From Verrucomicrobia bacterium UBA3624 (GTDB lineage: Bacteria; Verrucomicrobiota; Kiritimatiellia; RFP12; UBA1067): DNA of 64,000 nucleotides. Made by a program: the position numbers and the translations under genes. Of the stretch, positions 187-57,820 are shown one piece after another. The stretch lies in contig DFLH01000001.1 of NCBI GenBank assembly GCA_002373695.1, positions 114 through 64,113 on the forward strand, in the 5' to 3' direction. Each line of letters starts with the position of its first letter. Positions within the stretch are counted from its first letter, which is position 1. Under the pieces are notes generated by a model that was given only the letters and a program-made list of their open reading frames with translations, made no database searches and had not been told where the DNA came from.

Positions 187-196
187 GGGGGGGGGG
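187..196 (+). repeat. Homopolymeric G10 tract in the upstream region of the first gene
   Basis: Read directly: ccggttGGGGGGGGGGaagaaaag. It lies 11 nt upstream of a TTGACG hexamer (208-213). Confidence 0.9.
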
Positions 197-328
197 AAGA
201 AAAGAGCTTGACGCTCATTCCAAAAAAAGATAGTGCCATTCTGATTTAGGATAGTGCATCTTCGGCAGGAATGCGGTATAATCCCAGTTGTTTTGCTGGG
301 GAAGTTTTACCGAAGAAAGGATGTCGGC

Positions 329-1519
329 ATGAAAAAGAACGTGATGCGGAAGTGTGGATGGGTGGCGGCCGTTGCGGCGGTGTGCTCGTCGTCGTGCGTT
401 GCCGTGGCGGCGGAGGCGACGCCGCTGGGCGTGCTTGACCCGGAGGACGCGACGGCGTATCTCACAGCTGGCGCGCAGATATTCAAGGGCGATCTCGTGA
501 AGCAGGGAAATGGCACGACCACGCTTTCGCTGGCGGACGTCCATACGGCCGGGGGACGGATCGTAGTGGCGGACGGTACGCTTGCCGTTTCTGGAGCTAC
601 GGCGGCGAACGATCCGGGGAAGCCATGGGGCGTCCTGTCGAACGCCGTCGTCTGGCTCGATGCATCTATGCCGGAAACGATCGGTTTCGTCGAAGGCTCG
701 TCCGTGAACGTGAGCGAGTGGCGCGACGTGCGCGAGACGGGTACCGGTTCCGCTTCCAGCCCGTACCTCTACCGCCGTGCCGTGGCATACACCAATATCG
801 GGCACTCTGCCACCTACGCGCCCGATCCGGCAGGCTGGTTCCCGGAATACGTTCCGGCGAACGGCGGCGAGAACGCGTACGTGGACTTCGGCCAGTATTC
901 GAGCGGCCGAATGGTACGGTTCCTTGACATATCCGGCAATGTGAGCGCGATATCAAACATGCGCCATGCGTTCGTGGTCTTAGGCACGCATGACGGCCAC
1001 TACGGTTTTCTGTTCAATCCAGGTTCCGGGAACGCCATATTCGTGCCGCAGTCGTATGGCAATCTCGTCAACTGCACCCCTGGCAAGTTCATCCAGCAGG
1101 CAGGAGGCTGGAGCGTGCTGTTGACGGGCGTGTTTCGCGTGGACGGAAAGGCCGTGGATCCGGTGAACGAGGCGGGACCTAATGGCGGATACCAGCTGCT
1201 GGACATTGCAGCCGGAAAGGACGGCTGGAATCCTGTCGGCTTGTTTTCCCACGACACCATCGCCAGCCAGGCGAACGGATATCGACAAGGTGGCGGACGA
1301 CTCTGCGAGGCGATTCTTTTCGACAAGCCGCTCGAGGAGAGGGACAGGCTGAAAATCGAAGCGTATCTCCGGTGGAAGTGGTTTGGGGCTGAAGTGGCCG
1401 CGCCGACATGCTTCGTGAACAAGGATGCAACGCTTGTAATCGACAATTCAAGGGGGGGGGTACAAAGATCTGACGGTTATCGGCAACGGTCCGGTAACGC
1501 TCGAAGCCGGAACGCTTGA
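329..1519 (+). CDS. Secreted LamG-like domain protein; N-terminal fragment of a gene interrupted at a G9 tract
   Basis: ATG 329 is preceded by AAAGGA. Signal peptide: MKKNVMRKCGWVAAVAAVCSSSCVAVAAEA. LamG-type domain ending: LCEAILFDKPLEERDRLKIEAYLRWKWFG. The frame terminates at 1519, shortly after the G9 tract. Confidence 0.75.
   Translation: MKKNVMRKCGWVAAVAAVCSSSCVAVAAEATPLGVLDPEDATAYLTAGAQIFKGDLVKQGNGTTTLSLADVHTAGGRIVVADGTLAVSGATAANDPGKPWGVLSNAVVWLDASMPETIGFVEGSSVNVSEWRDVRETGTGSASSPYLYRRAVAYTNIGHSATYAPDPAGWFPEYVPANGGENAYVDFGQYSSGRMVRFLDISGNVSAISNMRHAFVVLGTHDGHYGFLFNPGSGNAIFVPQSYGNLVNCTPGKFIQQAGGWSVLLTGVFRVDGKAVDPVNEAGPNGGYQLLDIAAGKDGWNPVGLFSHDTIASQANGYRQGGGRLCEAILFDKPLEERDRLKIEAYLRWKWFGAEVAAPTCFVNKDATLVIDNSRGGVQRSDGYRQRSGNARSRNA
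1452..1460 (+). repeat. Intragenic homopolymeric G9 tract at a frameshift point
   Basis: Read directly: aattcaaGGGGGGGGGtacaaag. The reading frame of ORF 254-1519 and that of ORF 1533-3575 meet here. Confidence 0.9.
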
Positions 1520-1532
1520 CACTGCCGATCCG

Positions 1533-3575
1533 GTGGCGCTGACGGTGGCGGAGGGTACGACATACAACGCCATGACAGGCGGGGTGGAACGCGTGTCCGG
1601 CGGCGGTTCTTCGTTTGTAAAGACAGGTGATGGCGAGATGGTGGTGCAGAAGGTTTCTGACGGCCTCGTCAAGATCGATGTGCGGGACGGCGTCTTGCGT
1701 CTGCGGCAGGACATGATTTCTCCGTTCTCCGTTCCCGCCAATCTGTGCGGTTACATCGAGGATCCGTCGTTCGAGGCGTTTTCGGACACGACTGTCCCGA
1801 GTCCCGGTCTTTATCTGGATTCTACAGGCAAGCACGGATGGAAGACGTACGGGAGCCATGAGAAGGGAAACGTCGCGAAATGGCAGACAGGCGGCGGTTA
1901 CTTCAACATGGCGGGAATACCGTATCCCGACGGGATCTATGTGGGCGTGTTGCATATCCGCGGTGGCTTGCAGACGACGGTGACGCTTCCGGCGGATGGC
2001 GTCTACAGGCTGTCCTACTGGGTGGCACAACGTCCAAACTATAAAGGGCACGAGCATCGCGTCCTGATCGACGGCATGCCCGTTGCGGAGGTCAAGGCGT
2101 GGGATTCGTCGTGCAACTGGCATCTCGTGTCGTTTCGCCTGCCTCGACTTGCCGCCGGCGAACATACGCTGGTCTTGGCAAGCGACGACAACAACAGCAC
2201 GGCGACGCGCACGGTCGATTTCTCCGTCACGGACAATATAATGTCCACTGGCAATCTCGTAGCACTTGTCGACGACTTCCACGTGGACTGGATAGAGCCG
2301 GGGGATGGGCAGGTGGCAATCAGCAACGCGAGTTTCGAGGTGACTTCGTTCAGTGCGCGTGGCTACGAAAAGAACCCGGAAGACCTGGGCGGATGGGTGC
2401 TGGGGCCTGTGGACGAGACTAACTATGTCGTCCTTGAGCAGACATGGAACGGGCGGCCTACATTGCATCCGGCATCGGACGGATGCCGTATCCTGAATCT
2501 TGTCAACCAGGTGCATGTCGGGCAGGACGTGACATTCCCTAAGGCCGGGACTTATACCTTGACGCTGGTGGCGGGTTCCGCCGCAGGGAACGATATCGCA
2601 AGCTATCCAGGCAAACTCCGGTTCATGCTGGGCGAGACGGAGATCGGCGCGCTTGAACTCCAGACGAACGGCAAAGCATCGATCATGAAGACGTTCAACC
2701 TCCAGTTTGCCGTGCCGGAGGCCAACTACACTGCCAGGCTTTACATTGCGAACATCAGAGGCGGATCCATCGTTTCCGTAGACGACATCAGGATATCTGC
2801 ATTCGAACCGGGAGTGAATGTGGTTGCCGAAAACTCGTTTGCCTCTACGGGATGGAGCGTGTACGAACCGGAATCGGACATTCATGACGGATCGGGGAAA
2901 GTAGAATGGTTGCCACAGGCGCTTTCCGATGTCGCCTGGGGTCCTGTGACATATGGAGAAGACGGCAACCGTGCCGGAATCCGCAACAACGCCTCGATCT
3001 GGCGCACGGTGGCGTTTCCTGCCGCCGGGACGTACCGGCTGTCCGTCGCGTCCATCGGGCGCTTCTACCGCTACAACGACTCGCATCTGACCGATCCCGG
3101 CATTCTGACGCGTTACAGCGGCAACGCGTTCAACGCCTGGGTGGCGAAGGGCGGCGTTACGAACGTGGTCGGCACGTTCGGCGTGGACGACCGCGAAAGG
3201 TTCGTGACGCACCGGTTCCTGTTCGAGCTGCCGGAGGGCGGCAACTGGGAGGTGGGCTTCAGCGGGCTGAAGGAGTCGGAGCACAAGGTTGCCGGGAGCA
3301 ATACCTGGTACAGCAACGGCGGCGTGCTGGACGGCCTGGTGATCGAAAAGGTGACGGCGGCGGCGAAACCGGGCGTTCCGGAGACGGTGGAGATCGACGT
3401 GGCCGAGAGGGCCGTGCTGGCGCTTGACTATCTGGGGACGAACAAGGTTGCCGCCGTGCGCTATGCGGGGCGGAACTATTCCGGGGAAATCAATGCGGTC
3501 ACATGCCCGGCGTTTATCACCGGCGCGGGGGTGTTGTACGTGCAGCCGAAGGGCACGGTGCTAATGTTCCGCTAA
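1533..3575 (+). CDS. C-terminal fragment of the same surface-protein gene: beta-strand repeat region plus three CBM/jelly-roll-like modules
   Basis: This frame is open upstream back to the G9 tract (YKDLTVIGNGPVTLEAGTLDTADPVALTVAEG...). Three modules each start with a P-A-(D/G)-G-x-Y-x-L motif (LPADGVYRLSYW, FPKAGTYTLTLV, FPAAGTYRLSVA). The first two end with VDDF/VDDI. The coordinates follow the GTG start in the ORF track. Confidence 0.75.
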   Translation: MALTVAEGTTYNAMTGGVERVSGGGSSFVKTGDGEMVVQKVSDGLVKIDVRDGVLRLRQDMISPFSVPANLCGYIEDPSFEAFSDTTVPSPGLYLDSTGKHGWKTYGSHEKGNVAKWQTGGGYFNMAGIPYPDGIYVGVLHIRGGLQTTVTLPADGVYRLSYWVAQRPNYKGHEHRVLIDGMPVAEVKAWDSSCNWHLVSFRLPRLAAGEHTLVLASDDNNSTATRTVDFSVTDNIMSTGNLVALVDDFHVDWIEPGDGQVAISNASFEVTSFSARGYEKNPEDLGGWVLGPVDETNYVVLEQTWNGRPTLHPASDGCRILNLVNQVHVGQDVTFPKAGTYTLTLVAGSAAGNDIASYPGKLRFMLGETEIGALELQTNGKASIMKTFNLQFAVPEANYTARLYIANIRGGSIVSVDDIRISAFEPGVNVVAENSFASTGWSVYEPESDIHDGSGKVEWLPQALSDVAWGPVTYGEDGNRAGIRNNASIWRTVAFPAAGTYRLSVASIGRFYRYNDSHLTDPGILTRYSGNAFNAWVAKGGVTNVVGTFGVDDRERFVTHRFLFELPEGGNWEVGFSGLKESEHKVAGSNTWYSNGGVLDGLVIEKVTAAAKPGVPETVEIDVAERAVLALDYLGTNKVAAVRYAGRNYSGEINAVTCPAFITGAGVLYVQPKGTVLMFR

Positions 3576-3585
3576 GGAGTGGCTT

Positions 3586-6468
3586 ATGTTGTTGCGAACC
3601 ATGGTGCCGGTTGTCGCATATGCGATGGCCGCAGGGAAATTGTCGGCCGCGGAACTTCTCTTCCATGCGCCTTTTGACGGGTCGTCTGTGGCGGCCTCGG
3701 CAAGGGGCGAGGCGCGTCCGCAGATCGCGCGAGGGCTGGAATACGCGCCGGGCGTGGATGGGCAGGCCGTGCGCCTGACGGCGAAGGCGAAGAGCGTGCT
3801 GCAGTACGCCCTTGCCGGCAACGTGCTGCCGGAAAAGGGGGCAGTGTCTTTGTGGGTGAAGCGCGAATGGCCGGATGAAGGAAACAGTCCGGAAGGGAAG
3901 GAGATATGGCGGACTATGTTTTCGTTTCCCGAGCCGTGCAAGAGGTTTGGATCCGGCTCTCTTTCCCTGTGGTGGTGGGGATCGAAATTGCGTTGCGACA
4001 TCACGGACCGTGGCCACACGCATATCAGCAGGAACGGCGTTCCTCCGCCTGACGGGAAATGGGAACATGTCGTCTTTACCTGGGATGAAGATGCGAAGGA
4101 GGCGCATCTATACCGGAACGGACGAAATATGCATTATCATTCCGACGATACCGGACCGATGGCAAGGGTTGTAAGAAAGAAGACTGGGCTGCCGTTCACA
4201 TTCGACAGGCCGGGGTTCGACAGATTTTTCGTCGGATGTCTGGGCGACGGGCAACGAGTGGAGGGGCTTGTGGACGATTTCCGCATCTACGCCGAGGCGC
4301 TTTCGGATGCGGAGGTCATGGCGCTCTTCAGCGAGCATTCCCAACTTGCGGAACCGCCGCAGGAGAAGCCCGACTATGCCGCGTTGTTCGCCAACGACGG
4401 ACCGAATCCGCACGAGGGCGGGGAGCGTCTGGACCTTGAGTTCGTGGCGGAGTACCGCTTCGACGCGGAGTCGATGGCGCGCTACCGCCGGGAGAAGCGG
4501 TTCCGGTCCGTCGGCGACGTGTCGGAGAAGTCGCTGTGCGGCGTTCCGTATCTGGAGGCGGGGACGAACCTCAACGACCGGTTCGCGTTCATGTTCGACA
4601 TCGATCCGTCCGTGCCGCTCTACTGCTTCGACTTCGTCTATCCCGACGACGCAAAGCGCACGTGCGACCTGCTCGTGCAGTTCAAGGAGGCGCATGGCGA
4701 CGACTATGCCCTCCAGGTGGGCTATTTCACGGGCGATGAATATCCGAACACGGGGAAGATGCTCACGCACCGGTGCCTGTACTGGACGACGCCGGGGCAG
4801 GGCGAGCTGGCGATGATCGCGATGACGGCGCGCGCAGGCGTCCCCGCCGCGCTCGCGGCGTTGCGCGTCCACAAGGTGAAGGACGCGAAGCTACCGCCGC
4901 TCGCCGTGCGCGAGCCCAAGCCGGCGGGAGACTGGAACCGGATGTTCGGGATGTGCTGGGAGGATCCCGCCATCGGCTACGACTTCGGCACCGGCGGGCA
5001 CGGCGCGAAGGAGATTTCCGCGCTCGTCGACCGCACCGCCGCCTACATGAAGTACTGCGGGCAGAACGTGTTCTGCTATCCGGGCGTCTGGTACCAGGGG
5101 CTGATCGGGGAGAACTACAATCCGCGCAGCCACGCGCCCGACTTCCTCTCGGCGTGGTATGAGAAGTTCGACAAGGAGGGGTTGTTCTTCGTTCCGAACG
5201 TCAACGCGAACAACATGGAAATCCCTGCGGGCCTGGTGACGATGGACACGATGACGAACGGCGCGCTGCACGCCACGCCCATCGCGATCCACGACACGGG
5301 CAGGCCCAACTGGGGCGGCTGGCACAACTCGCCGCCAAACTTCAACTTCATCCACCCGGACGTGCAGGCGCAGATCGGGCGGCACATCGACGCGCTCCTC
5401 GACCAGGGGGCGACGCATCCGAGTTTCAAGGGCGTGTGCATATACCTCACCATGCACAGCATGAACTGGTTCGGCGACATCCGCAGCGGATACAACGACT
5501 ACGCCGTGCGGGCTTTCGCAAAAGACAAGGGTCTGGACATTCCGATCGATGCGACCGATCCGATGCGTGGCCGCGCCAGCGCGAAATGGATTCGTGAACA
5601 TGCGCTTGACGCGTGGGTGCAGTGGCGGTGCGACCAGGTGACGCGCTTCTATGCGCGGATAGCCGAGAAGCTGCGCGCGCGACGTCCCGACTTGAAGCTG
5701 TGGCTGAACAGCTTCGTGCAGCCGGACTGGAACTGGCCGGACTTCATGGAGGACGGTTTCATGGAACGCCAGGCAAGGGAAGGCGGGCTGGACCGCGCGG
5801 CGCTCGCCGCCATCCCCAACCTCATCCTCTGCCAGACGCAGCTTCCCGCGTTCTGCCGCAAGCGCGACCGCAGGCTGTTCCCGAACGACGAGACGTATGC
5901 GTTCAACCGCGTGCTGCAGACGAAGCCCGGCTTCTTCGCGCTTTTGAAGGACGCGCGCTTCCCGTGGATCAACCAGCACGACCTCTACTGGGAGAACCCC
6001 GTTGGACGCGAGAAGGGTGAGTTGAACGGCGATGGGTTCGTCGAGACCAAATGGCGCGTCACGACGATCAACCCGTCCGGCTACCACGCCCTGCGGGATT
6101 TCGTCCTGCCGCTCCGTTTCGGCGACGTGCTGGGCATGTCGAAGGGCGGATATCTCGTGGGCACCTACGGCATGGAGGAGCATCTGCGCGCGTTCGCCGC
6201 CGCGTACCGGGCGCTGCCGGCCGTGGTGATGAAGGAGATTGGACGGAAGGGAAATGTGGTGTTGCGCCATGCGGACTACGACGGAGAGTCGTACTTCTAC
6301 GTGGTGAACACGGGTCTTGCGCCGATGATGGTAAAGCTCGCCGTTCCTCCCGGGACCAGAAATCTCGTGACCGGGGAATGTGCGAGCGGTGACGTCTTGG
6401 AAATGGAACTGGGGACGTATCAGCTGGTCGGCTTTGCAGCTGGAGCAGGGAGGCCCGCAATCAGGTGA
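3586..6468 (+). CDS. LamG-domain protein fused to a putative glycoside-hydrolase-like TIM-barrel region
   Basis: TAAGGAG lies 6 nt upstream of the ATG. N-terminal signal-like segment: MLLRTMVPVVAYAMAAG. LamG signature: LVDDFRIYAEALSDAEVMALF. The C-terminal 650 aa resemble GHL10/GH42-like hydrolases (GVCIYLTMHSMNWFGD..., WVQWRCDQVTRFYARIAEKLR). The family was not verified. Confidence 0.55.
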   Translation: MLLRTMVPVVAYAMAAGKLSAAELLFHAPFDGSSVAASARGEARPQIARGLEYAPGVDGQAVRLTAKAKSVLQYALAGNVLPEKGAVSLWVKREWPDEGNSPEGKEIWRTMFSFPEPCKRFGSGSLSLWWWGSKLRCDITDRGHTHISRNGVPPPDGKWEHVVFTWDEDAKEAHLYRNGRNMHYHSDDTGPMARVVRKKTGLPFTFDRPGFDRFFVGCLGDGQRVEGLVDDFRIYAEALSDAEVMALFSEHSQLAEPPQEKPDYAALFANDGPNPHEGGERLDLEFVAEYRFDAESMARYRREKRFRSVGDVSEKSLCGVPYLEAGTNLNDRFAFMFDIDPSVPLYCFDFVYPDDAKRTCDLLVQFKEAHGDDYALQVGYFTGDEYPNTGKMLTHRCLYWTTPGQGELAMIAMTARAGVPAALAALRVHKVKDAKLPPLAVREPKPAGDWNRMFGMCWEDPAIGYDFGTGGHGAKEISALVDRTAAYMKYCGQNVFCYPGVWYQGLIGENYNPRSHAPDFLSAWYEKFDKEGLFFVPNVNANNMEIPAGLVTMDTMTNGALHATPIAIHDTGRPNWGGWHNSPPNFNFIHPDVQAQIGRHIDALLDQGATHPSFKGVCIYLTMHSMNWFGDIRSGYNDYAVRAFAKDKGLDIPIDATDPMRGRASAKWIREHALDAWVQWRCDQVTRFYARIAEKLRARRPDLKLWLNSFVQPDWNWPDFMEDGFMERQAREGGLDRAALAAIPNLILCQTQLPAFCRKRDRRLFPNDETYAFNRVLQTKPGFFALLKDARFPWINQHDLYWENPVGREKGELNGDGFVETKWRVTTINPSGYHALRDFVLPLRFGDVLGMSKGGYLVGTYGMEEHLRAFAAAYRALPAVVMKEIGRKGNVVLRHADYDGESYFYVVNTGLAPMMVKLAVPPGTRNLVTGECASGDVLEMELGTYQLVGFAAGAGRPAIR

Positions 6469-6478
6469 AGCCAGGCAG

Positions 6479-7183
6479 ATGAGGCGTTGTGTTCTTAACG
6501 TTCGCGGATGTCTTGCGGTCCTGTGCCTGTCGATGGCGGCGGCGAAAGCATGTGCGCGAAGCACGACAGGTTCGCAGTTCGGCGTATACGGCAACACGCC
6601 TGTCGGCACGAACGGACTGTTTTCGGCGACGATATACGGAGAGACGCATCTCGTCTCCAAGCAGCCGGATTCCGTCTATTCGCATTTCAGCCTGGACTGG
6701 CATTTGTCGCCATGCTGCGCTCTTGCGCTGTGCGACCGGCTGGTGTTCGTGCGGCGCGCGCAGACGGCGCGTCATCACGGGCATACATGGATACGCGACA
6801 ACCGTACAGGATTCGATGTCACGCTTACGGCCCGTCGGTACGGGTGGACATTCGTCACAAGGCCGCGCGTGTTCTACCGGCAAATAGAGGATTCGGACGA
6901 TTTCATGCGCTACGGCAGCAGGAACATAGTCTTTGCTCCGTGGCACTGGACTTCGCTGGGAATCACCCCGTATGGTTTCTTCGAATGGTTTCTCGACGAC
7001 AATCCTGCGGCGCGAAAGAACGACAAGTTCGACCTCTACATCTTCCATCACGGTCTTTCTTTCAAGGTGAACGAAAATGCCCGGCTTCTCGTCTATTACG
7101 AACTGCAGATGGGAAAGAGCATCGTGACACACGACTGGGCGCCCGGGCATACGTTCGGCGTGTTCTACATCTGGAGGTTCTGA
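6479..7183 (+). CDS. Putative outer-membrane beta-barrel protein (possibly DUF2490-like)
   Basis: The internal ATG at 6479 gives a signal peptide MRRCVLNVRGCLAVLCLSMAAAKA. The sequence has an alternating aromatic/hydrophilic pattern. The C-terminus FGVFYIWRF ends in Phe, as is typical of OMPs. Confidence 0.5.
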   Translation: MRRCVLNVRGCLAVLCLSMAAAKACARSTTGSQFGVYGNTPVGTNGLFSATIYGETHLVSKQPDSVYSHFSLDWHLSPCCALALCDRLVFVRRAQTARHHGHTWIRDNRTGFDVTLTARRYGWTFVTRPRVFYRQIEDSDDFMRYGSRNIVFAPWHWTSLGITPYGFFEWFLDDNPAARKNDKFDLYIFHHGLSFKVNENARLLVYYELQMGKSIVTHDWAPGHTFGVFYIWRF

Positions 7184-7253
7184 AGCGACCGTCTTGCCGC
7201 ACCGCGTGAATCCTGGTAGGATCGAAAACTTAAGCAATGTAGCGAGGAGTACA

Positions 7254-9404: not shown

Positions 9405-9443
9405 ACCTAAATTCCTCATTTCGATTTACCACTCCATGTTATA

Positions 9444-9623
9444 TCTCACGCAGAGGCGCGGAGAGGCAGAGTTCGCAGAGTTTATCCCCATTGCTTGAGA
9501 ATGTATTTGTTTTCACCAATTGGGTGAAAGAACTTTCCGAGATTCTTCTTGTCATGGTTTTCTTTTCCATCGGATATCTGAACTTTCTCTGCGCTCTCCG
9601 CCTCTCTGCACCTCTGCGTGAGA
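9444..9623. repeat. MITE-like element: roughly 30-bp imperfect terminal inverted repeats flanking a central hairpin
   Basis: TCTCACGCAGAGG (9444-9456) is the exact reverse complement of CCTCTGCGTGAGA (9611-9623). The arms extend imperfectly inward (GCGGAGAGGCAGAG vs GCGGAGAGCGCAGAG). A central palindrome TTCACC-aattg-GGTGAA is present. The surrounding intergenic region is AT-rich. Confidence 0.6.
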
Positions 9624-9683
9624 CATTCAACCGAGGATTTTAGGCTGAAAGCATCCCCCGCAGTTTAAGCGAAGGAGACAAAC

Positions 9684-22448: not shown

Positions 22449-22452
22449 AACC

Positions 22453-36918: not shown

Positions 36919-36948
36919 TTGACATAATGCGCAGGGGGGGGGTATAAT
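36919..36948 (+). promoter_or_regulatory. Consensus sigma70 promoter TTGACA-18 bp-TATAAT whose spacer contains a G9 tract (36934-36942)
   Basis: Read directly: TTGACAtaatgcgcaGGGGGGGGGTATAAT. It lies 36 nt upstream of ATG 36985. Confidence 0.7.
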
Positions 36949-36984: not shown

Positions 36985-39615
36985 ATGCGCCTTGTATTTG
37001 CTGTTGCGGTTTCCGCCGCCATGCTTGCGACGACCGGTCATGCCGCAGGCCTCTCTGCCAGCCACTACGTCCAGGACGGGCTGGTCGCGCTCTTCGATGC
37101 CGAAGACAACGAAGGGACGGGAACGCACAATTCCTCCGCCTCTCAATGGAAGGATCTGAAGGGATCGGCGTATGTAAATTGTGTCGCCGACAGCATCTGG
37201 TCGTCGCGCTACTTCTGCAGTCCCACCAACCAGAACTACATAAAGGATATGCCGACGTTAGATCGCAACTCGATTACGGTCGAGGCTGCGTTCGACATGA
37301 TTTCCCACGCCACTAAAAATTACGCTTGTATCGTCCACGGCGGCGAATATTTCAAGTTTTTCTATAACGACCCTGATGCCACCGGTGTCGTCGGATACAT
37401 GTGCCCCGTCGGCGGTATATCCAATGTCGATGGTTCCGGCTACAAATGGGTCAAGACGGCAAGCGGTTTCAGTTCTGGCACGGTGTCCTTCTTTTCCGGC
37501 AGCGATGGTTATGGCGTGCGCGCCGACGGCATGGCAACGGGAAGCCCGTCGGATTACCATGTGGCCATCGCCAACTATACGCTCTCCGCCAACGCCTGGT
37601 CGCTCAACCAGAACGAGTTCGCGGGGAACTACTATTGCGTACGCTGGTACGACCGGGCCTTGAGCGACGACGAGATGCTGGCGAACGCGTTTATCGACAA
37701 ATTGCGTTTCAGGTCGTACATGCTTGCAGGGGACGGTAGCGAAGCCGACTGGAGCGCTGTCGCGTGGGAGGCGCCGTATGATGCGACGGCGTCCGCGCCG
37801 TCGACGGACACCAACGAGTTCGTGCGGATTGCAAATGCGGAGGTGAACGTGGCCGCTTCCGACAACGTGGGGCTGGCGGGGCTCTCCCTCGAAGACGGAG
37901 CCGTGCTGGACATCGCCGATGGAGCGGTTGTTTCCGTTAAGGTGCTTTATGTCGAAGGCGTCGAGATCGAAAGGGGCATCTACTCCGGCGACGAGACGAA
38001 GGGCAGGAAGGTTTCGTGGCTTAACGGTTCCGGCGTACTGAAGGTGGCAGGAGGAAAGGACGTCGACGATTTCCCGGAGACGTATCTCCTTCCCGGCGAG
38101 GACGGATGGTTTCAGTTCGGTACGCAAAGCGGCAGTTACGGGAGCGTAGACACCTACGCCGGCGCGAAGAGGGAATATTTCATAGGCGAACATGTCGATT
38201 GGAGGAAATGCAGTTTCCCCGCAGGAGGAAACAACAAACTTCGCCTTGCAGGCTATTCGCTGATTGGTGCAATTCCGTCCGGCACCTTTTCGGTGGTGGA
38301 TCTGTCTAAGGCCACGATAGTCCAGCTCTATGAACCGCAAATGTTCGAGGATGGAACGCAGGCGACCGTTCCTTACGGCGTCATTCTGCGGTATCATCCT
38401 GGAACCTGGGAGAAGGACGAATCGACTGGACGATACTACCGCATGGGCTCTTCGAGCGATCCATATGCGGGCGACATCTATCTGAACGGGGCCGCCGCAG
38501 TGCTTCGCGTTTCGGTGGACAACGGACTCAAGGAAGTACAGTTCTCCGGGCTGTTCAGCGGTACCGGCAAACTGCAGTTCAGCGCATGGGGGAACCGGGC
38601 GAGGTTCTCCGGCGGATTCGCGCTGAACAACTACATCGGGTCGTTTCAGCACGGATCGCTGGTCTGGCTGGATACGACGATGGTCACAAGCCGGCTGGAA
38701 GGTGTCACGTTCGCCGGGTGCAACGATTCCTATGTCAACGACCAGGCGTCCGGCTATCGCGTGAACGGGCTGTATTTCGGCAAGAACGGCAGTGAAGAGA
38801 CGGCTGACCACGAACTGTACTTGAAATATGTCAACGGCACGGCAAAGGTCGGAATCAGCACCACTACCGGCATACGGCTCCGTTCTGGCGCGGTGCTTGG
38901 CATCTGGGGCGGAAATACCGTACATGCAGGATATATGACGGCAAACGGTTCAGTCCATGTCATTGCGCGTCCGCAGGAATTGAAGTCCACATTCAATGGC
39001 TGGCATTTCAAGGCCGTCGGCGCCGGAGATGGCAACTTCGTGGTGGACGAGGTTCGTGTTTCCAGCAAGCTTTACATGTCAGAACACGTAAACATGACGG
39101 CAGGAAATGTGCTGGCTAATGCGTGCTTCGATTATACGTTTGCTACAAACGAGACGACCGTATCGTTCTTGGATATCACCAACGCATGCGATTCGACCGC
39201 GACGGTGGTCGCTAACGACATTGCATCTCTGCCGGCGCGGCTTTCGGGATTCACGGGAACGGTCAGCCTTTCAAGTGCGGCCACGAAGTCCTACACGATG
39301 CCGGTCGACATGACGCAGGGGACGGACATCCTGTACAACACGGTAGGGTGCATTGGTTCCGGTGCGCTTGCCGGAGCGCCTGCGGCGGGTGCGATAGATG
39401 CGACGTTCCCGACGGACTCCGAGCCGGTCAAGGGCGACTATTCGCTTGCGCGTTTCACCTCCGGCGGCGAAGCCTTGGCCGGTTGGACGGTGACGTTGAA
39501 CGGTCAGGCGTTGACGGATGTCCAGGTGGGTGGCATGATGGTGTCCGTGGTGAAGGATTCCACGGGAATTTGGCTGAAGGTGCGGGAAACGGGAATGACG
39601 TTCCTGTTGAGGTAG
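36985..39615 (+). CDS. Secreted LamG-domain protein with a long beta-rich C-terminal region
   Basis: Signal peptide: MRLVFAVAVSAAMLATTGHAAG. LamG-type ending: YYCVRWYDRALSDDEMLANAFIDKL. The C-terminal tail is ETGMTFLLR. Confidence 0.75.
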   Translation: MRLVFAVAVSAAMLATTGHAAGLSASHYVQDGLVALFDAEDNEGTGTHNSSASQWKDLKGSAYVNCVADSIWSSRYFCSPTNQNYIKDMPTLDRNSITVEAAFDMISHATKNYACIVHGGEYFKFFYNDPDATGVVGYMCPVGGISNVDGSGYKWVKTASGFSSGTVSFFSGSDGYGVRADGMATGSPSDYHVAIANYTLSANAWSLNQNEFAGNYYCVRWYDRALSDDEMLANAFIDKLRFRSYMLAGDGSEADWSAVAWEAPYDATASAPSTDTNEFVRIANAEVNVAASDNVGLAGLSLEDGAVLDIADGAVVSVKVLYVEGVEIERGIYSGDETKGRKVSWLNGSGVLKVAGGKDVDDFPETYLLPGEDGWFQFGTQSGSYGSVDTYAGAKREYFIGEHVDWRKCSFPAGGNNKLRLAGYSLIGAIPSGTFSVVDLSKATIVQLYEPQMFEDGTQATVPYGVILRYHPGTWEKDESTGRYYRMGSSSDPYAGDIYLNGAAAVLRVSVDNGLKEVQFSGLFSGTGKLQFSAWGNRARFSGGFALNNYIGSFQHGSLVWLDTTMVTSRLEGVTFAGCNDSYVNDQASGYRVNGLYFGKNGSEETADHELYLKYVNGTAKVGISTTTGIRLRSGAVLGIWGGNTVHAGYMTANGSVHVIARPQELKSTFNGWHFKAVGAGDGNFVVDEVRVSSKLYMSEHVNMTAGNVLANACFDYTFATNETTVSFLDITNACDSTATVVANDIASLPARLSGFTGTVSLSSAATKSYTMPVDMTQGTDILYNTVGCIGSGALAGAPAAGAIDATFPTDSEPVKGDYSLARFTSGGEALAGWTVTLNGQALTDVQVGGMMVSVVKDSTGIWLKVRETGMTFLLR

Positions 39616-46106: not shown

Positions 46107-46113
46107 ACGACCG

Positions 46114-50700: not shown

Positions 50701-53700
50701 TCAACGACGAGTCCGACTGGACGATGGGCATCAACACTACGGGAACGGCGCTCAGCAGCGCCACCAGATCCCTGGACGAATGGGACTATCTCGAAGACCG
50801 CTGGCGGCAGCTCGCCGCAGGCGAGACTGCAAGTTATGGCGCGTCGGGATTCATCGCGCAGATTCCCACGAACCAGACGGTAAAACTGCTGTTCGCGAAG
50901 CAAGACGGCGGATGGTTCGACAGCGGCTACGAGCAGATAGTGGACTCTTTCGCTACGAACACGTTCTCGTTCGCGCCGTGCGTGTCGCCCAGCTACATGG
51001 TGCGTCTGCAGGCCGGCGGCACCACTGAAGACGTGCGGACCGACATAGTGGTGGACGACGTGGAGGTGCTGGCGTGGCGCGGCGTGGACATGGACGACCT
51101 CTCGTCCAAGGACGGCCGTCCTGAAGAATGGGTCTATACGATGGGATCGGTGGAATCGACCGTGGATATCGAAGGCAGCCCGTATCTGCTGAATCCGGCC
51201 GGCACCAACGGCTACGTCTACGTGTTCACGAACGCCGGAAGCACGGTCACGTTCAAGCCGACGATGGATACGATCATCGACCGTGTGCTGCTGGTGAGCG
51301 GCAGCGGCGTGGTGAACGAGCAGAACTGGTCGGCTTCGCCTGTGACGCAGAAGACGAACACGACGGTCAGAATCGTGGTAGGCAGCTCGAACAAGGTGTC
51401 CACGGTGACCGGAATCACGGGGAAGGGGACGATCACGGCGTCCGCCGGCAACCCCGCGTCGCGTACGAGCGACATAACGGGGGAGACCGCCACATATGGC
51501 GGCGTTCGCGGCCAGGCGCGTGTGATTCTGCGCGTGCGCAACGCCAGCAAGGTGTGCGTGCTCCAACCCGCCAGGAACTATCCGCTCGACGATTCGTCGC
51601 ACCCCGGAATGGACTATCCGATGAGCCTGCGTTCCCCCTACATGGGCAACGGCCTTTCGGTGTTCAGCTTCTCGTATCTCAATGCGCACACGAACGCGAA
51701 CCTGCTGCTGCAGATATGCACCAACATGACCGAGGCCGGCGAATCCTACACGCCTACGATGCGTTCGGCGAGCGACACCACGTATTGGACGACGGTGACG
51801 AACTGGTCGTTCGCGAACATGGACGACGACAAGAGGGCAAGCGGCACGCTGGCGTACTTCATGAGCCTTCGCGCGCCGTGTTCCGGCCTGATGCGCCTTG
51901 TCGTCGATCCGGCCGTAGTGTCCAACGCCCTGTCGCAGGCGGAGGACGGGCGCGATCTGGACTATGGCAAGGTAATGGTCACGAAGGTGTTCTGCTACGA
52001 CGAACCGGCGCTGGACATGCGCTCCTGGTGGGGATGGAACCTGTACACGGCAGGCTGGGACGCCACCTCGTCGCAGCCAGGGCCGTGGGCCTACCTTACG
52101 GATTCGCCAAGCGGCCTCTCCTGCTCCCTGAACTTCTCGGCCCTGGTCAGCGACAACAGCAAGACCGATCTCGCGAATACGTATGGCGTGGGGCTGGCGA
52201 ATCCAGACCGTGAAGAGGACTACAAGAAGAACAATCCGTTCGTGCAGTGCCCTGCCATGACGAACGGCATCGGAAGCATCAGCTTCCGGGCAAGGACTTT
52301 CGAGACGAACGCGACGGCCCGTCCGTCTGTGGTCGTCCTCTACGGCACGAGCGAGCCGGATGCGTACCAGGCGGACGACTACGGATGGCAGAGCTGGACG
52401 CGCCTGGCCGAATTCATCGTATCCAACAACACGTACCAGACGTACTCGTGGAAGACGAACCTCCTGAACAGCCCGTATCAGGCCATGCGTCTCGAAGTGG
52501 GCGCCGCCCGCCACGGGCGCAGCAAGCCTGCGGCGTCCGGCACGGTGAAGGGCTGGGAAACGCCCGTTTCCACGAACAGCGTGGATTACTGGCCGATCCA
52601 GCGCGTGTTCCTGGACGAGGTGTCCGCGTCCGAGCCTGTCGCGCCGAGGTTGAAGTTCTTCGACGTGCGGCCGTTCCGTTCGAATCTCGCCGGCGGCGCT
52701 TCGGTGGCCATCACGAACATCAACGACAAGGACGAGCAGCCTCTCCTTGGCGAGTCGTGGGGGATACAGGCGCGGATCGAGCCGCAGCAGATGTCCGACG
52801 AGCTCGATCTCGACAGCCTGCGCGTGTTCATGGCCGCGTACAAGGGCAGGAGCCCGTGGGGCTATGCCAAGTGGATGAACGAGGCGTCGTGCGTCCAGGC
52901 CGAGCTGCAGTGCGTGGATGCCACAAACCACATCTTCCGCAGCACGTACGACAATCCCGCCAGCGTGATGGCGCCTTTGGAGGCGATGAGCGCCGCCGAT
53001 CCGTATGCCGTCGTGCAGTACCACGTGTGGGCGACGTACACAAGCAAGGATTCGCCGGTGACGAACCGCTACGATCTCGAATCCGCCGACTGGGTCCAGC
53101 CGTCCTGGTACTGGCCTGTCGACTACAACGAGACGTACGGCCTGGGATTGAAGGCCAACTTCAGCGCCTATGCGATCTTCGACACCATCTCGCCGGGACG
53201 CGCCTGGTTCAACGAGATGAACTTCAATGACGAATACAGCAAGAACCGCCAGTTCATCGAGGCCGTCGTGCCGGAGAACGTCAATCTCGCCAGGTGGAAG
53301 GTGCGCCTTACGGAAAAGTCCCTTTCGCAGCGCGTGATCGTTTCCTTGGGCGTTTCCAGCGATGCCACGTTCACGTCCAAGACGGGCAGGAAGCCGAACA
53401 TCGACTCCACGAACCATTTCACGGTCGTGGCGCTGGGCACCCCGGCCGGCAAGAGCGACGGGTCGTTCGCCAGCGGGGAGCTGGACGGCTACTGGGAAAA
53501 CATCACGGACTCGTCGATGGCGATTACGCAGGGCAAGCTTGACCGCTGGAACACGTACGGCCTGGAGCTTATAAGGCCGAGCGGCGTGGTGGAGCACCAG
53601 GTGGTGATCCAGGGCACGAACGGCCTTGCAGGTACGATCTTCGAGGCGGGTGGTTCCGGAACGAACGTTCTGGCCAAGATACTGGAAAAGGACGGTGCGG

Positions 53701-54917
53701 CGTCCAACTGGTTCTATGCCGGCGAGGAGCTCGGCGACAAGGAGCGCACGATCGGAGTGTGGCGCGGCCATGGCGAGAAATCGTGGCAGGGCGGCGCCAC
53801 ATGGACGAACGACCTTACGGCCACGCCTGGCGAGCTCAACCTGCGCAACGGCGCGCGCCAGACGATAGACAAGTGGCTGCTGGACCCGAACGGCACGAAC
53901 GTGTGGATCTACGCCAAGGTGCTGGGGCAGCACGTGTGGCAGTATGTGGACGGCAACCTCGCCAGTTCCAACCGCAATGCGGTGATGGTGGTGCCGATCA
54001 ACAGCTCCACCAACATCCGTTATATCGTAGATGCGTGGTACGAACTGGCCAACTGCACCGTGAACGAAACCAACAAGGTGACTCCTTCCGCCGTGGCCGG
54101 TGCCAAGCGCACTTTCGAGATCAAGCTGAACGATATCAAGGAGACGCAGAACGTGAGCGTGGGAGAAGCCGCCGACAGCAGGCTTCTTTCCAGGTGGAAC
54201 CTGGCGGCGGACGATCCGTACAGCCCTGCGATCCTGCACTGGCTGCTCGAAAAATGGCCAGACAACGATCCTGACGACATAAGCCTGGCGGAGTTCTGGC
54301 CGCTTTCGGCGCAGGGGCGTCCGCCGGAGAGCAAGCTGGAGCATCTGAGCCTGAGGGACATGTACTGGCTTGACATTTCCCCGGTGCAGAGCAACTGGGT
54401 GCTCATAGCAGGCATGGGCGGCTGGGGGCAGGGGCCTGGCGGAAGCCCCGCCGTGGAGCCGGTCGTCATATCCAAGGACGGCGAGGAGTACACGAACGTG
54501 ATAGTGACGGTGTCGATGATGATCACCAACACGCTCTCCGGCGACCATCATCCGCCGTACACGATCCAGGGTCTGCGCCCAGGATCGTCGAGCGCGGACG
54601 AGTTCGCGGGAATGAGCGGCAACTGGACGAGTGCCACGTTCAAGGTGACTGGCGCCCTGCAGATTCCAGGCGAGAGCGACAGGTTCAGGCCGCTGCAGTG
54701 GTTCGTGTTCGACGAGAATTCGTTCGACGACAACGGAATGGCCCGCATAGAGATTCCCGACCAGACGAAGGTCGGCACGGCAGGCTACAACTACCGCTGG
54801 TACAATTTCTTCGGCACGCCCGTCTTCTACAGGTGGTCGCTCGATGAGAATCCGTCCGACCTGCTTTCCACCAAGCTGCTGAATTCCAATTCCGTACATA
54901 CCGTCATCTCACCCTGA
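47796..54917 (+). CDS. Giant (2,373-aa) secreted protein of unknown function with several MAM/CBM-like beta-sandwich modules
   Basis: GAGGAG is the RBS. Signal peptide: [21 protein letters not shown]. The frame is uninterrupted for 7.1 kb. The protein is rich in Trp, Tyr, Asn and Thr. Recurrent module starts match G-x-G-x-(V/I)-x-F, and module ends match (V/L)D(D/N/E)(V/I). Confidence 0.8.
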
Positions 54918-54928
54918 GCAGGCAAATC

Positions 54929-57529
54929 ATGTCCGAATACAACTACGCGGTCATAGAGAAGAAGTGGCAGAAGTATTGGCTCGACCACAAGACGTTCAAG
55001 ACACCAGACCATGTTGAAGGCAAGAAGAAATTCTACTGCCTGGACATGTTTCCCTATCCGAGCGGGGCGGGGCTCCACGTGGGACATCCCGAGGGATATA
55101 CCGCCACCGATATCCTTTGCCGCTACAAGCGGATGAAGGGCTTCAACGTCCTGCATCCGATGGGTTGGGACGCATTCGGCCTGCCTGCGGAGCAGTACGC
55201 CGTGGAAACCGGCACCCACCCTGCGGTAACCACGAAGAAGAACGTCGACCGTTTCCGCGAGCAGATACGGGCGCTTGGCTTCAGCTACGACTGGGACCGC
55301 GAGGTGAACACCACAGATCCTGGGTACTACAAGTGGACGCAGTGGATATTCGAGAAGCTCTACGAGAAGGGGCTTGCGTACGTGGCCGAGGTGCCTGTCA
55401 ACTGGTGCCCCGCCCTGGGGACGGTGCTCGCAAACGAGGAAGTGATAGACGGCCGCTCCGAACGCGGCAACCATCCTGTGATCCGCCGGCCGATGCGCCA
55501 GTGGATGCTGAAGATCACCGCCTACGCCGAACGTCTGCTGGAAGGGCTTGAGCATCTCGACTGGCCGGAGGGCATCAAGGAGATGCAGCGCAACTGGATC
55601 GGCAAGTCCACCGGCGCGGAGGTGGATTTCAAAATGAAATTTACCATGGGCGGGGGTGCTGGGGCGCCAGAGCTCCCGTCCGTTGTCACCGTCTACACCA
55701 CCCGTTGCGACACGCTATTCGGGGCCACGTACATGGTGATGAGTCCCGAACACCCGTTCATAGCCAGATGGCTGGAGGAGGGGCTGCTCGCGAACGCCGA
55801 AGAGGTGAAGGAATACAGGCGGAAGGCGGCGTCGAAAAGCGATCTGGAACGTACGGAGCTGAACAAGGACAAGACGGGCGTGAAGCTGGAAGGCGTGACG
55901 GGCGTCAACCCGGTGAACGGCGTAGAGCTGCCTATCTTCATCTCCGACTACGTGCTTGCGAGCTATGGCACGGGGGCGATCATGGCAGTGCCCGCCCATG
56001 ACGATCGCGACTGGGCCTTCGCAAAGAAATTCGGCCTGCCTATCATCGAGGTGGTGCGTCGTGCCGGAGACGTGGAATCTTTGCCGCTTCAAGCCGCTTT
56101 TACGGACTGCGCCACGGGAACGATGGTGAACAGCGGCTTCATCACCGGACTTTCCGTCGAAGATGCCAAGGCGAAGATGATCGCCTGGCTGGAAGAAAAA
56201 GGCGTCGGCCACGCCAAGACGCAGTACAAGCTGCGCGATTGGCTTTTCAGCCGCCAGCGCTACTGGGGCGAGCCGTTCCCGGTCATCCACATGGCCGATG
56301 GCAGCACGAAGCTCGTGCCTGCGGAGGATCTGCCGCTTACGCTTCCCGAGCTTGCCGACTACAAGCCTACGGGTACGGGCGAGCCGCCGCTCGCAAAGGC
56401 GGCGGAATGGGTCAACTACACCGATCCCAAGACTGGCGAGAAGGGCGTGCGCGAGACGAACACCATGCCTCAATGGGCCGGCAGCTGCTGGTACTACCTG
56501 CGCTATATCGACCCGCACAACGATGCCGCTTTCGCGGATCCCGCCAAGCTGAAGGAATGGCTGCCGGTCGATCTCTATGTCGGAGGCGCGGAACATGCGG
56601 TACTGCATCTGCTCTATTCCCGCTTCTGGCACAAGGTGCTGTTCGATCTCGGCCTGGTGCCGACGGACGAACCGTTCCAGCGGCTGGTCAACCAAGGCAT
56701 GATCCTCGGCATGGCGTACAAGACGTCGCGTGGCGTCCTTGTGCCGATGGACAAGATCACATGGCGCGAGGGCAAGCCATACGGCGCGGAAGACGGCGGC
56801 GAGGAGGAGCTGCTGACGGAATTTCCGGCGAAGATGTCGAAATCCCTGAAGAACGTCATCAACCCGGACGACGTGATACGCGATTACGGAGCGGATTCGC
56901 TGCGCCTCTACGAGATGTTCATGGGGCCGCTGCAGGCTGTGAAGCCGTGGTCCACGAAAGGTGTCGAGGGCGTGTTCCGTTTCCTGAAGCGCGTCAACAA
57001 GCTCGTGACGGAAACGCCGATCGCGGACCGTCCGCTCACCAAGGCGGAGGCGAAGGTGCTGAATGCGACCGTGAAGAAGGTTGGAGAGGATCTGGAGTCG
57101 CTCAACTTCAACACGGCCATATCTGCGATGATGGTGTTTCTCAACGAGTTTCCGGCAACGACCGGGGGTTCTGGCGCCCCCGAACCCCTGCCAAGGGAAG
57201 CTGTTGAAAAGTTCGTGCTCTGCCTGGCGCCGTTCGCGCCGCATCTGGGGGAGGAGCTGTGGCAGTTCCTTGGCCATGCCGGCACGCTTGCCTACGAACC
57301 TTTCCCCGCATACGATCCGGCGGCACTCGTCGAGGACGAAGTGGAAATCCCCGTGCAGGTGCTAGGCAAGTTGCGCGGGCGCGTCACCGTCCCGGCCACG
57401 GCGGACGCGGCGGCAATGCGCGCCGCAGCCGAGGCGAACCCGGACGTCGCCAGGTTCCTTGCTGGCAAAACGATAGTCAAGGTTGTCTGCGTTCCGAAGA
57501 AGATGGTCAACTTCGTCGTTAGACCCTAA
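54929..57529 (+). CDS. leuS: Leucyl-tRNA synthetase
   Basis: The HIGH motif is in [16 protein letters not shown] and the KMSKS motif reads KMSKS. The architecture is full-length. Confidence 0.96.
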
Positions 57530-57589
57530 GACCCAAGGGGCGCATCCGCGAATCGTGCAGGTTGGCATGATTGTGTGCAAAAAAGGCCA

Positions 57590-57618
57590 TTGACCGGTAC
57601 GGCCGGATGTGCTAAACT
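57590..57618 (+). promoter_or_regulatory. Sigma70-type promoter for the tRNA pair (TTGACC-17 bp-TAAACT)
   Basis: TTGACC at 57590-57595 and TAAACT at 57613-57618. The tRNA-Ser 5' end is 16 nt downstream of the -10. Confidence 0.5.
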
Positions 57619-57633
57619 ACGCCCTGCTTTCGA

Positions 57634-57723
57634 CGGAGAGGTGGCAGAGCCCGGTTGAATGCACATGACTCGAAATCATGCATACCGCAAGGTATCGGGG
57701 GTTCGAATCCCTCCCTCTCCGCC
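57634..57723 (+). tRNA. tRNA-Ser (anticodon CGA), CCA encoded
   Basis: Acceptor GGAGAGG/CCTCTCC. Anticodon stem CATGA/TCATG with loop CTCGAAA. Long variable arm ATACC-gcaa-GGTAT. T-loop TTCGAAT. Confidence 0.9.
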
Positions 57724-57726
57724 AAC

Positions 57727-57800
57727 AGCGGGCGTAATTCAATGGCAGAATAGGAGCTTCCCATGCTTCTTACGAGGGTTCGATTCCCTTCGCCCGCTCC
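57727..57800 (+). tRNA. tRNA-Gly (anticodon CCC), CCA encoded
   Basis: Acceptor GCGGGCG/CGCCCGC. D-stem ATTC/GAAT. Anticodon loop TTCCCAT. T-loop TTCGATT. Confidence 0.9.
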
Positions 57801-57820
57801 ATTTTTTTGGGGGGGGGGGG
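57801..57820 (+). repeat. T7 run directly followed by a G12 homopolymer
   Basis: Read directly after the tRNA-Gly CCA: TTTTTTTGGGGGGGGGGGGcaggtg. Confidence 0.9.

Follow-up and report, generated by a model that had tools for sequence, protein, structure and literature searches.

What do four long, uninterrupted runs of G do within 64 kb of a G+C-rich bacterial genome, and do they belong together? The question is raised by a 64,000-nucleotide stretch of Verrucomicrobia bacterium UBA3624 (assembly GCA_002373695.1, contig DFLH01000001.1, positions 114 to 64,113; hereafter the window), in which a first-pass annotation had singled out four poly-G tracts. All of them are found on the + strand at exactly the positions given, G10 at 187-196, G9 at 1452-1460, G9 at 36934-36942 and G12 at 57809-57820. 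The flanking genes are on the + strand as well, and the tracts thus lie on the sense strand of their neighbours, as had been proposed. The impression that poly-C runs are missing also holds, as there is no C run of six or more anywhere in the window; the remaining G runs are one G7 and two G6. With four tracts of at least 9 nt, where the genome averages 0.94 per 64 kb, the window is unusually dense (Poisson P=0.016). We consider it likely that these tracts are members of a genome-wide set of about 50 slipped-strand contingency loci that controls a family of secreted surface proteins.

The genome to which the window belongs (called G000 below, with C numbers for its contigs, the window being G000:C35:114-64113) comprises 3.53 Mb in 81 contigs, has a G+C content of 60.5% and is about 91% complete. 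The leucyl-tRNA synthetase encoded in the window shares 74-81% identity with its counterparts in gut and rumen metagenome-assembled genomes (MAGs) labelled Kiritimatiellae, Lentisphaeraceae or Verrucomicrobia; a further label among them, 'Azospirillum sp. 51_20', is evidently mistaken. The host is an uncultured gut member of the Planctomycetes-Verrucomicrobia-Chlamydiae (PVC) superphylum, a Kiritimatiellae MAG of the commensal type and no known pathogen.

A genome-wide census bears out the suspicion that the placement of such tracts is not random, as long G runs exceed expectation more than 10-fold and are non-random by both gene class and strand. G/C runs of 5, 6, 7 and 8 nt number 2270, 332, 46 and 5, respectively, and from the decay ratio of 0.11-0.15 for each G added up to length 8, about 0.7 runs of at least 9 nt would be expected. 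The genome has 52 of them, namely 42 of 9 nt, seven of 10, two of 11 and one of 12. The spectrum is therefore bimodal, with a trough at length 8 and a spike at length 9. Markov chains of order 3 to 5 raise the expectation to 2.8-5.3 runs, a figure inflated by the tracts themselves as the chains were trained on the same genome. The overall density is about 1.5 tract loci per 100 kb, and six of the 52 tracts lie within 1 kb of a contig end compared with the 4.6% expected, which is a weak proxy for heterogeneity. A/T runs show a mild tail, with 19 runs of length 8, nine of length 9 and two of length 10 (the ratio rising from about 0.2 to 0.47), and part of these poly-A/T tracts might also be under selection. 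Missing mismatch repair was ruled out as a cause of the tracts, since both MutS and MutL are encoded. The tracts would therefore operate in a repair-proficient background, as do those of Neisseria and Haemophilus.

The position of the tracts relative to genes and promoters carries most of the argument. We classified them from their flanks, three-frame translations and simulated variants with one or two G more or fewer; gene calls came from a crude codon-usage finder, and the classes were hand-checked against the sequence and are approximate for about eight tracts. The largest class (S) comprises 20 tracts located 19-47 nt past the start codon, in the region coding for the n-region of the signal peptide of proteins of 600-1250 aa. 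An example is ATG AAA CTG CAA AAC AAT GCC CGC GTA G9 CGT GAG TTA, translated as MKLQNNARVGGGRELAPFVLAAAL. In 18 of the 20 the tract is in frame, and two are out of frame with a natural ATG (C32:6005, a G10, and C45:41733, a G9). The G8 at C52:70994 is out of frame, too, and one more G (G9) would restore it. Together with the window tract at 1452 (G9), these make four OFF alleles that a change of one G would restore. The next class (P) consists of 12 tracts in sigma70-type promoters, where they contribute to the stretch that separates a TTGACR -35 hexamer from a -10 element, following two designs, TTGACA-N8/9-G9-TATAAT with a spacer of 17-18 nt and TTGACR-N5-G9-taTGnTAAGAT with an extended -10 element and a spacer of 19 nt. 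In all 12, the total spacer measures 17-19 nt. Five tracts (class I) are deep in open reading frames (ORFs), four in frame and one out of frame. Thus, 37 of the 52 tracts are placed so that a unit change would alter a reading frame or a promoter spacing, and 20 of the 25 genic tracts are within the first 25 codons, which represent 5% of the coding sequence (P~1e-21). Another seven (class U) lie 15-330 nt upstream of a gene without clear relation to promoter hexamers. Among the last eight (class O) are one in a tRNA trailer, one in the loop of a hairpin between two convergent genes (C68:3702), composites of the forms T7G9 and T10G9 and one at a contig end.

Composite runs of T and G occur three times, as T7G12 in the window (57802-57820), T7G9 at C51:10224-10239 and T10G9 at C38:29956-29974. 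The last, C9A10 on the other strand, stands immediately upstream of the Shine-Dalgarno sequence of a gene of about 1980 codons and is the sole clear case of C on the sense strand. The sister species G001 has A8G10 and T8G9 composites. Short tandem repeats are also seen near some tracts, with (TAGTGAA)5 preceding the G11 at C1:13414 (C1:13370-13424) and a G6AG6 at C70:516 embedded among GAGAGTT-type repeats (C70:490-560).

The strand rule holds almost throughout. Sense-strand G is found in 45 tracts and sense-strand C in at most two, with five ambiguous (binomial P~1e-11), and the seeming exception at C38:44949 is a decayed S-type leader on the G strand. A replication-strand bias (GC skew) as the source of this rule is inseparable from gene orientation (45 of 52 tracts by skew, 45 of 47 by sense). 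Genic tracts occupy all three reading frames, and GGG accounts for only 16% of the Gly codons. The object of selection therefore appears to be the DNA homopolymer and not a Gly3 peptide. About ten homologous leaders and promoters in the same genome hold interrupted runs such as G4TG4, G6TG3, GGAG6 and G5TG5 (for instance TTGACGcgacaGGGGTGGGGTATGATAAGAT), in spacer or signal-peptide contexts; they include C40:13305(-), C61:34311(-), C14:7880, C49:626(-), C27:12440, C56:1359 and C31:140929(-). These leaders and promoters indicate that function does not need a perfect run, which makes the perfect run itself the special feature. The interrupted runs are candidate 'locked' alleles or decaying tracts.

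Which genes bear the tracts is best predicted by the C-terminus of their products. The tail G-x-x-h-h-h-[RK]-stop is present in at least 25 of 44 assignable targets compared with 70 of 2111 genes (odds ratio 59, Fisher P~1e-27). All of the first ten class S proteins extracted end in G-[TMFL]-x-h-h-h-[RK]-stop, and several further targets end in near-variants. The proteins with this tail form a family of about 70 large secreted proteins, with a median length of about 980 aa, in which a beta-strand and a P/G turn mostly come before the tail. Examples are encoded at C9:112391-115057, C14:40955-43783 and C26:110162-113860, and the tail is found twice in the window (positions 3552-3572 and 39592-39612). 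No Pfam or NCBIfam model covers these seven residues. The tail resembles a signal by which the members of a Kiritimatiellae surface-protein superfamily might be sorted or anchored at their C-terminus.

The targets all have signal peptides and are otherwise mixed in domain content. Most have no Pfam or NCBIfam match; PATR is found in one, Laminin_G_3 in two (C26:110162-113860 and C57:365-3511), Chlamydia PMP repeats in one (PF02415, 37 bits, C10:65448-67868) and an HpiC1-like domain in one. An autotransporter domain was detected in none of the 17 target proteins or halves scanned. Many of the leaders are paralogous to one another (such as MKLQKN..R.GGGRELA, with the pattern M-K-x-x-K...G-G-G-[RK]-x-L), and so are many of the promoters (such as caaaatNccaaTTGACAgcataG9tatgGTAAGAT).

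Against this background, the four tracts of the window prove not to be equivalent. One is part of a promoter spacer (36934), one is an intragenic frameshift (1452), one lies upstream of a promoter (187) and one in a tRNA trailer (57809). The tracts at 1452-1460 and 36934-36942 are placed so that a unit change would alter expression, through the frame and the spacer, respectively; such an effect is not evident for 187-196 and 57809-57820.

Class P is represented in the window by the sigma70-type promoter at 36919-36948 (+), which consists of TTGACA (36919-36924), an 18-nt spacer made of taatgcgca and G9 (36934-36942), and TATAAT (36943-36948). It lies 36 nt upstream of the ATG at 36985, which a GAAGGA Shine-Dalgarno sequence precedes. 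The gene (36985-39615, +) codes for a secreted protein of 876 aa with the signal peptide MRLVFAVAVSAAMLATTGHA; the protein ends with the family tail (...ETGMTFLLR) and has no Pfam or NCBIfam match. Across the genome, intergenic TTGACR...TAnnnT pairs are enriched at distances of 17, 18 and 19 nt and at background level at 16 and 20 nt. Given this optimum, the promoter should stay functional with G8 to G10 and be disabled with G7 or G11. The same architecture is found at 11 other loci of the genome and in the sister species G001 and G015.

The second locus is a split gene. Its N-terminal part (329-1519, +) codes for 396 aa with the signal peptide MKKNVMRKCGWVAAVAAVCSSSCVAVA and a weak, sub-threshold match to PATR or autotransporter repeats. 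The frame opened by ATG 329 reads ...DNSRGG, continues into nonsense and stops at TGA 1517-1519. G9 (1452-1460, +) sits exactly at the frame break, with upstream codons starting at 2 mod 3 and downstream codons at 0 mod 3. Directly after the tract, the downstream frame reads YKDLTVIGNGPVTLEAGTLD, and the C-terminal part (1461-3575, +) stays open for 704 codons and has the repeats that typify the family, a beta-sandwich domain (HpiC1-like) and the family tail (...KGTVLMFR). Read from the sequence, G8 or G11 at this site fuses the two halves into a single ORF of about 1080 codons and G9 is the OFF state; the ORF simulation gave 819-820 aa at G8 or G11 compared with 134 aa at G9. Both halves retain good coding statistics. 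The gene is either in an OFF state that a single step would reverse or a very young pseudogene.

Upstream of the same gene, G10 (187-196, +; class U) lies 132 nt before ATG 329 and 11 nt before a TTGACG hexamer (208-213). The candidate -10 element paired with the latter, TAGTGC, is poor, and a consensus scan of positions 1-400 found no canonical -35/-10 pair. About 70 nt upstream of G10, at 80-120, there are three to four copies of GTCTCAAA phased at 11 bp. It is tempting to speculate that the tract may change the spacing between these repeats and the core promoter of the split gene. A similar layout is found in G026, from a different family of the same order, in which nine copies of an AT-rich cassette of about 130 nt each carry exactly G9 some 19 nt upstream of TTGACA-N17-TAAATT.

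The first-pass annotation had assigned three of the tracts to genes for LamG-type surface proteins. That they are at genes of secreted surface proteins is borne out. LamG identity was dropped for both tract-linked genes, as no Laminin_G or ConA-like match was found in 329-3575 or 36985-39615, even at E<=5. A Laminin_G_3 domain is present in the product of the neighbouring gene 3586-6468.

The fourth tract belongs to a tRNA locus, and the statement that no tract is next to a housekeeping gene does not stand, as G12 begins 8 nt past the gene for tRNA-Gly(CCC) and 280 nt past leuS. A tRNA promoter at 57590-57618 is followed by tRNA-Ser(CGA) (57635-57724, +) and tRNA-Gly(CCC) (57728-57801, +). Directly after the 3' end of the latter come T7 (57802-57808) and G12 (57809-57820), both on the + strand, and the last two G of the tract are the foot of a terminator-like hairpin (57819-57837). 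The tract does precede an envelope operon, as had been claimed, since genes for an ABC ATPase (57948-58673), an FtsX-type permease (58687-60966) and a vWA-domain protein (ending at 62989), all on the + strand, were confirmed downstream. This operon starts 128 nt after the tract, which is in no recognisable promoter. G12 is probably a hypermutable bystander in the trailer or terminator of tRNA-Gly and not a regulator of the operon. It adjoins the gene of the very tRNA that reads the GGG codons made by in-frame poly-G, which is probably a coincidence. After the tract, at 57850-57875, there is also a GC-rich palindromic element (GGGACGGCaCCctGtGCCGTCC and variants) similar to repetitive extragenic palindromes; such elements are dispersed in the intergenic DNA of this genome and border many scaffold N-gaps (for example at C26:71779, C38:63553 and C10:30226).

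Length polymorphism is what defines contingency loci, and if the tracts slip, their length may differ between populations. We read the alleles of seven tract loci in other public assemblies through exact matches of neighbouring proteins; one further look-up of this kind gave no match. Assemblies report the majority allele only, and some of the data sets probably share samples; minority variants are neither shown nor excluded by this approach. Of the seven, only the G12 tract varied. It is G12 in the MAG, SRR5322873 and SRR873603 and G13 in ERZ12302819, in a sequence otherwise identical over 3126 nt (0 mismatches, one gap). Two strains 99.6% identical to the host (ERZ28594113 and ERZ27317941) have G6AG6 at this place, and several short contigs begin in or beside the tract. 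Within the window, length polymorphism was therefore found at this tract and at none of the other three. The tract at 187 is G10 in two other assemblies, that at 1452 is G9 in ERZ12302819 and SRR5322873, and that at 36934 is G9 in five others including JGI 3300002641 and AUXO01. Outside the window, C42:24535 (G9), C32:6005 (G10, OFF) and C10:50798 (G9) likewise show no difference among the assemblies found. A metagenome scan for the flanks of the tract at 1452 with a variable gap gave no matches. Four tract-bearing proteins were each singletons in clustering at 90% identity, and public data contain too little of the species to collect strain variants through protein clusters.

Related genomes extend the picture. 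Every one of the 30 relatives that were sampled has runs of at least 9 nt, with G9:G8 ratios of 0.3-1 compared with about 0.13 expected from simple decay; more G9 than G8 is found only in the host genome and a few others (G004, G007 and G026). The sister species G001 and G008 have 48 and 51 tracts of at least 9 nt, respectively. Twenty G001 tracts, sampled without bias, comprise five of 9 nt, eight of 10, four of 11, two of 14 and one of 22. Six of these 20 are promoter spacers, in which G9 to G11 are complemented by 0-9 extra bases to totals of 19, 17, 18, 19, 18 and 17 nt. What is conserved is thus the spacing and not 'G9'. This speaks for working promoters that contain a variable element, and against a G9 motif of fixed length that is recognised as such. 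A homologue in G015 has TTGACA-N9-G10-TATAAT, and G006 has an S-type leader with G9. Strict pattern searches of the genus for the cassette or leader of the host gave few matches. Orthologues of a tract-bearing protein in the genus are at most 33% identical, and tracts are not at conserved positions. Their absence from orthologous positions in distant homologues suggests that tracts are gained and lost quickly, and it makes a comparison of orthologous tracts impossible.

Promoters of this kind exist in other gut organisms as well. A metagenome scan for the promoter cassette returned ten matches, one from this species (G9) and the others from other organisms. Among the latter, TTGACA-Gn-taTGnTAAGAT occurs at orthologous promoters with differing G numbers, with G8, G9 and G8 at one locus and with G10, G11 and G12 in three WBZV01 contigs. 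The G8/G9/G8 promoters precede the gene of a 659-aa secreted protein with the tail GYTVDANGVWVQ, on contigs of 53-55% GC; our guess is that the organism is Firmicute-like. These matches illustrate the phenomenon and are no evidence about the host genome.

The mechanism that we infer from this body of observations is slipped-strand mispairing. G/C repeats of about 7-8 or more count as long enough to be hypermutable, and during replication runs of at least nine G would gain or lose one G at high frequency. At the 20 class S and five class I tracts such a change would shift the frame and turn the protein ON or OFF; the tract at 1452-1460 would have been caught in the OFF position, with G8 or G11 corresponding to ON. 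At the 12 class P tracts, which make up half of the spacer, it would move the distance between the -35 and -10 elements within or beyond 17-19 nt, thereby tuning or silencing transcription. High switching rates, reversibility and an effect on expression are what this mechanism would entail. The over-representation of the tracts, their placement and strand, their target family, the OFF frames, the conserved spacing and the polymorphism of one tract are observed.

Several points weigh against this reading. Two of the four tracts in the window, at 187 and 57809, are not where a length change obviously affects expression. In all other assemblies found, which represent at least two to three sample sets, six G9/G10 tracts do not differ in length from the MAG; two of these tracts are OFF alleles, and these could therefore be fixed pseudogenes. 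The host has MutS and MutL, unlike Campylobacter jejuni or Helicobacter pylori. Finally, many tract-bearing leaders and promoters are paralogous, and part of the non-random placement thus stems from family expansion and not from independent origin. The first-pass annotation had seen in the four tracts the hallmark of contingency loci in host-adapted pathogens. The observation is confirmed, and the contingency-locus interpretation is supported in part, with strong evidence from the census and from placement and strand; the window tracts are not equivalent, and the host is a gut commensal type and not a pathogen.

The first alternative to consider is that the tracts are fixed cis-elements inherited with an expanding family, with poly(dG).poly(dC) serving as a rigid spacer or protein-binding site in promoters and Gly-Gly-Gly as a linker in a homologous leader peptide, in which case their length would be stable. 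The preponderance of exactly G9 (42 of 52 tracts), the six G9/G10 tracts that are invariant across assemblies, the clear paralogy of leaders and promoters, the nine G026 cassettes that are all G9 and the presence of mismatch repair would all fit. However, the contexts of the tracts are unrelated (three reading frames, promoter spacers, upstream regions, a hairpin loop, a tRNA trailer), with the homopolymer alone in common. A fixed element also accounts poorly for OFF-frame alleles, for homologues with interrupted runs, for the G9-G11 of G001 with their compensating bases and for the variation of G12. Runs of this length are generally known to slip, including in repair-proficient bacteria. In addition, the G8-G11 tracts of C. 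jejuni were measured to mutate at high rates (PMC3401435), which we also count against a fixed element. Altogether, we regard this explanation as improbable, although it is the most serious competitor of slipped-strand switching.

Alternatively, the runs might be a neutral by-product of a mutational bias of the lineage that expands G runs to about 9 nt, tolerated only where harmless, in intergenic DNA and signal-peptide n-regions, and with no adaptive part in surface variation. The G9 mode is indeed also seen at non-regulatory sites, such as the hairpin loop at C68:3702, the tRNA trailer and an intergenic T7G9; the run-length spectra of the relatives are heavy-tailed, with the G9/G8 ratios given above, and the G6AG6 of other strains at the G12 locus suggests weak constraint. 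Yet a single protein family is enriched with an odds ratio of 59, spacers are kept at 17-19 nt and perfect runs persist amid diverged flanking codons, three features that argue for selection. Nor do other 'harmless' sites, such as ordinary intergenic DNA or leaders of other secreted proteins, contain tracts to a similar extent. We find a neutral origin of the set hard to credit.

Slippage could also take place at the RNA level, by RNA polymerase on the C9 template or by ribosomal frameshifting on GGG-GGG-GGG, so that a fixed G9 yields a constant mix of products and rescues, for example, the gene 329-3575. Homopolymers of 9 or more are known RNA polymerase slippage sites, and the tRNA-Gly(CCC) encoded next to the G12 tract reads GGG; the invariance of G9 across assemblies is compatible with such a non-genetic mechanism. 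However, productive transcriptional slippage is known on A/T runs, and G/C hybrids slip poorly. Furthermore, this mechanism leaves the promoter-spacer and upstream tracts (12 and seven loci) unexplained, and 18 of the 20 leader tracts are already in frame. It is very unlikely to account for the set. As for a sequencing or assembly artefact, in the form of two-colour poly-G or homopolymer miscalls, it may be suspected from the very long poly-G at some contig ends of relatives (51 nt at the start of G020:C366) and from the G12/G13 difference, which could be a miscall, but it is effectively excluded by the contig-internal location of the tracts (G/C runs of at least 6 nt fall within the terminal 60 nt of only one contig out of 81), their unique and functional-looking flanks and their base-for-base identity in ERZ12302819, SRR5322873, SRR873603, JGI 3300002641, AUXO01 and ERZ28612943, which come from different runs or projects.

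Slipped-strand contingency loci, the reading that we favour, make the host system comparable to the classical ones of Campylobacter, Neisseria, Haemophilus, Helicobacter, Bordetella and Treponema. C. jejuni is AT-rich (about 30% GC) and lacks MutS and MutL, and its tracts are mainly in glycosyltransferase, capsule and flagellar-modification genes. The host resembles this species (about 29 loci in strain NCTC11168) in its dozens of G tracts with a mode of 9, which are mostly intragenic, near the 5' end of genes for surface structures and in a mixture of ON and OFF frames. It differs from it in its 60% GC, its MutS and MutL, the approximately one quarter of tracts in promoter spacers and the large secreted proteins as targets; switching was measured in C. 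jejuni, whereas in the host it is predicted from the sequence. The modal length of C. jejuni polyG/C tracts is also 9, G8 mainly gaining and G11 mainly losing a G, and the mode was attributed to these mutational patterns (PMC3401435). By analogy, the G9 mode of the host is best explained by a length-dependent slippage bias, in which short tracts would tend to expand and long ones to contract.

Both designs of the host have known counterparts. Promoter-spacer switches are those of Neisseria meningitidis porA (polyG) and opc (polyC), Bordetella pertussis fim2/fim3 (polyC) and Treponema pallidum tpr (polyG), in which a homopolymer between the -35 and -10 elements, or between an activator site and the -10 element, sets promoter strength by its length. 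The tract at 36934-36942 and the 11 other host loci share the layout of porA, opc and tpr, with total spacers of 17-19 nt. The known cases are individual loci or small families of pathogens, for which expression data exist, whereas the 12 host loci are read from sequence. Repeats in signal-peptide regions are found in Neisseria pilC (polyG) and opa (CTCTT) and in the hop genes of H. pylori (CT); there, translation ends early after a frameshift, and length changes that keep the frame are tolerated. Class S of the host shares this placement and differs in phylum, protein family and scale, with 20 genes of one design.

Closer relatives offer two further comparisons. In Chlamydia, another member of the PVC superphylum, pmpG has a variable polyG inside a family of paralogous surface proteins, the frameshifts of which were read as phase variation; the Pmps carry the autotransporter domain PF03797 (PMC6740158). 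In contrast, no PF03797 was detected in the host proteins scanned, which end instead in G-x-x-h-h-h-R/K, and the window genes have neither GGA(I/L/V)/FxxN Pmp repeats nor an autotransporter domain. Chlamydial tracts are also mostly deep in the ORF, whereas those of the host are mostly in leaders or promoters. Akkermansia muciniphila has 17 genes with homopolymers of more than 8 bp, enriched at gene termini, for which phase variation was suggested (PMC3048395). It is a gut commensal of the Verrucomicrobia group like the host, but it has far fewer tracts, made of mixed bases, with no single target family and no promoter-spacer class described. A full-text literature search found no paper joining Kiritimatiellae with phase variation. 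What is new here is the lineage, the scale, the two stereotyped designs and the link to a family with an undescribed C-terminal tail. Phase variation by simple repeats is textbook material for a few pathogens; to our knowledge, descriptions from the abundant, uncultured commensals of the gut are scarce.

If the tracts switch, they would form one of the largest homopolymer phasomes known, with about 50 tracts per genome in the three species checked and one uncharacterised surface-protein family as its target. They would offer a handle on which proteins of Kiritimatiellae face selection by the host, phages or glycans, and the approximately 50 loci per genome would be usable for tracking within-host population dynamics by metagenomics. 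They would also carry a warning for annotation, as 'frameshifted pseudogenes' and odd start codons in such MAGs would then probably be reversible OFF states. Moreover, a repair-proficient genome of 60% GC would provide an independent test of the idea that slippage bias sets the G9 mode. On balance, we lean slightly towards the view that gut Kiritimatiellae run a very large phasome, in which some 40-50 independently switching tracts per genome, of two designs, would give a combinatorial display of about 70-90 tailed proteins. If so, stochastic surface variation would be a central lifestyle trait of this repair-proficient, high-GC uncultured PVC lineage, and the G9 mode would reflect a slippage equilibrium that it has in common with the unrelated, AT-rich and repair-deficient Campylobacter.

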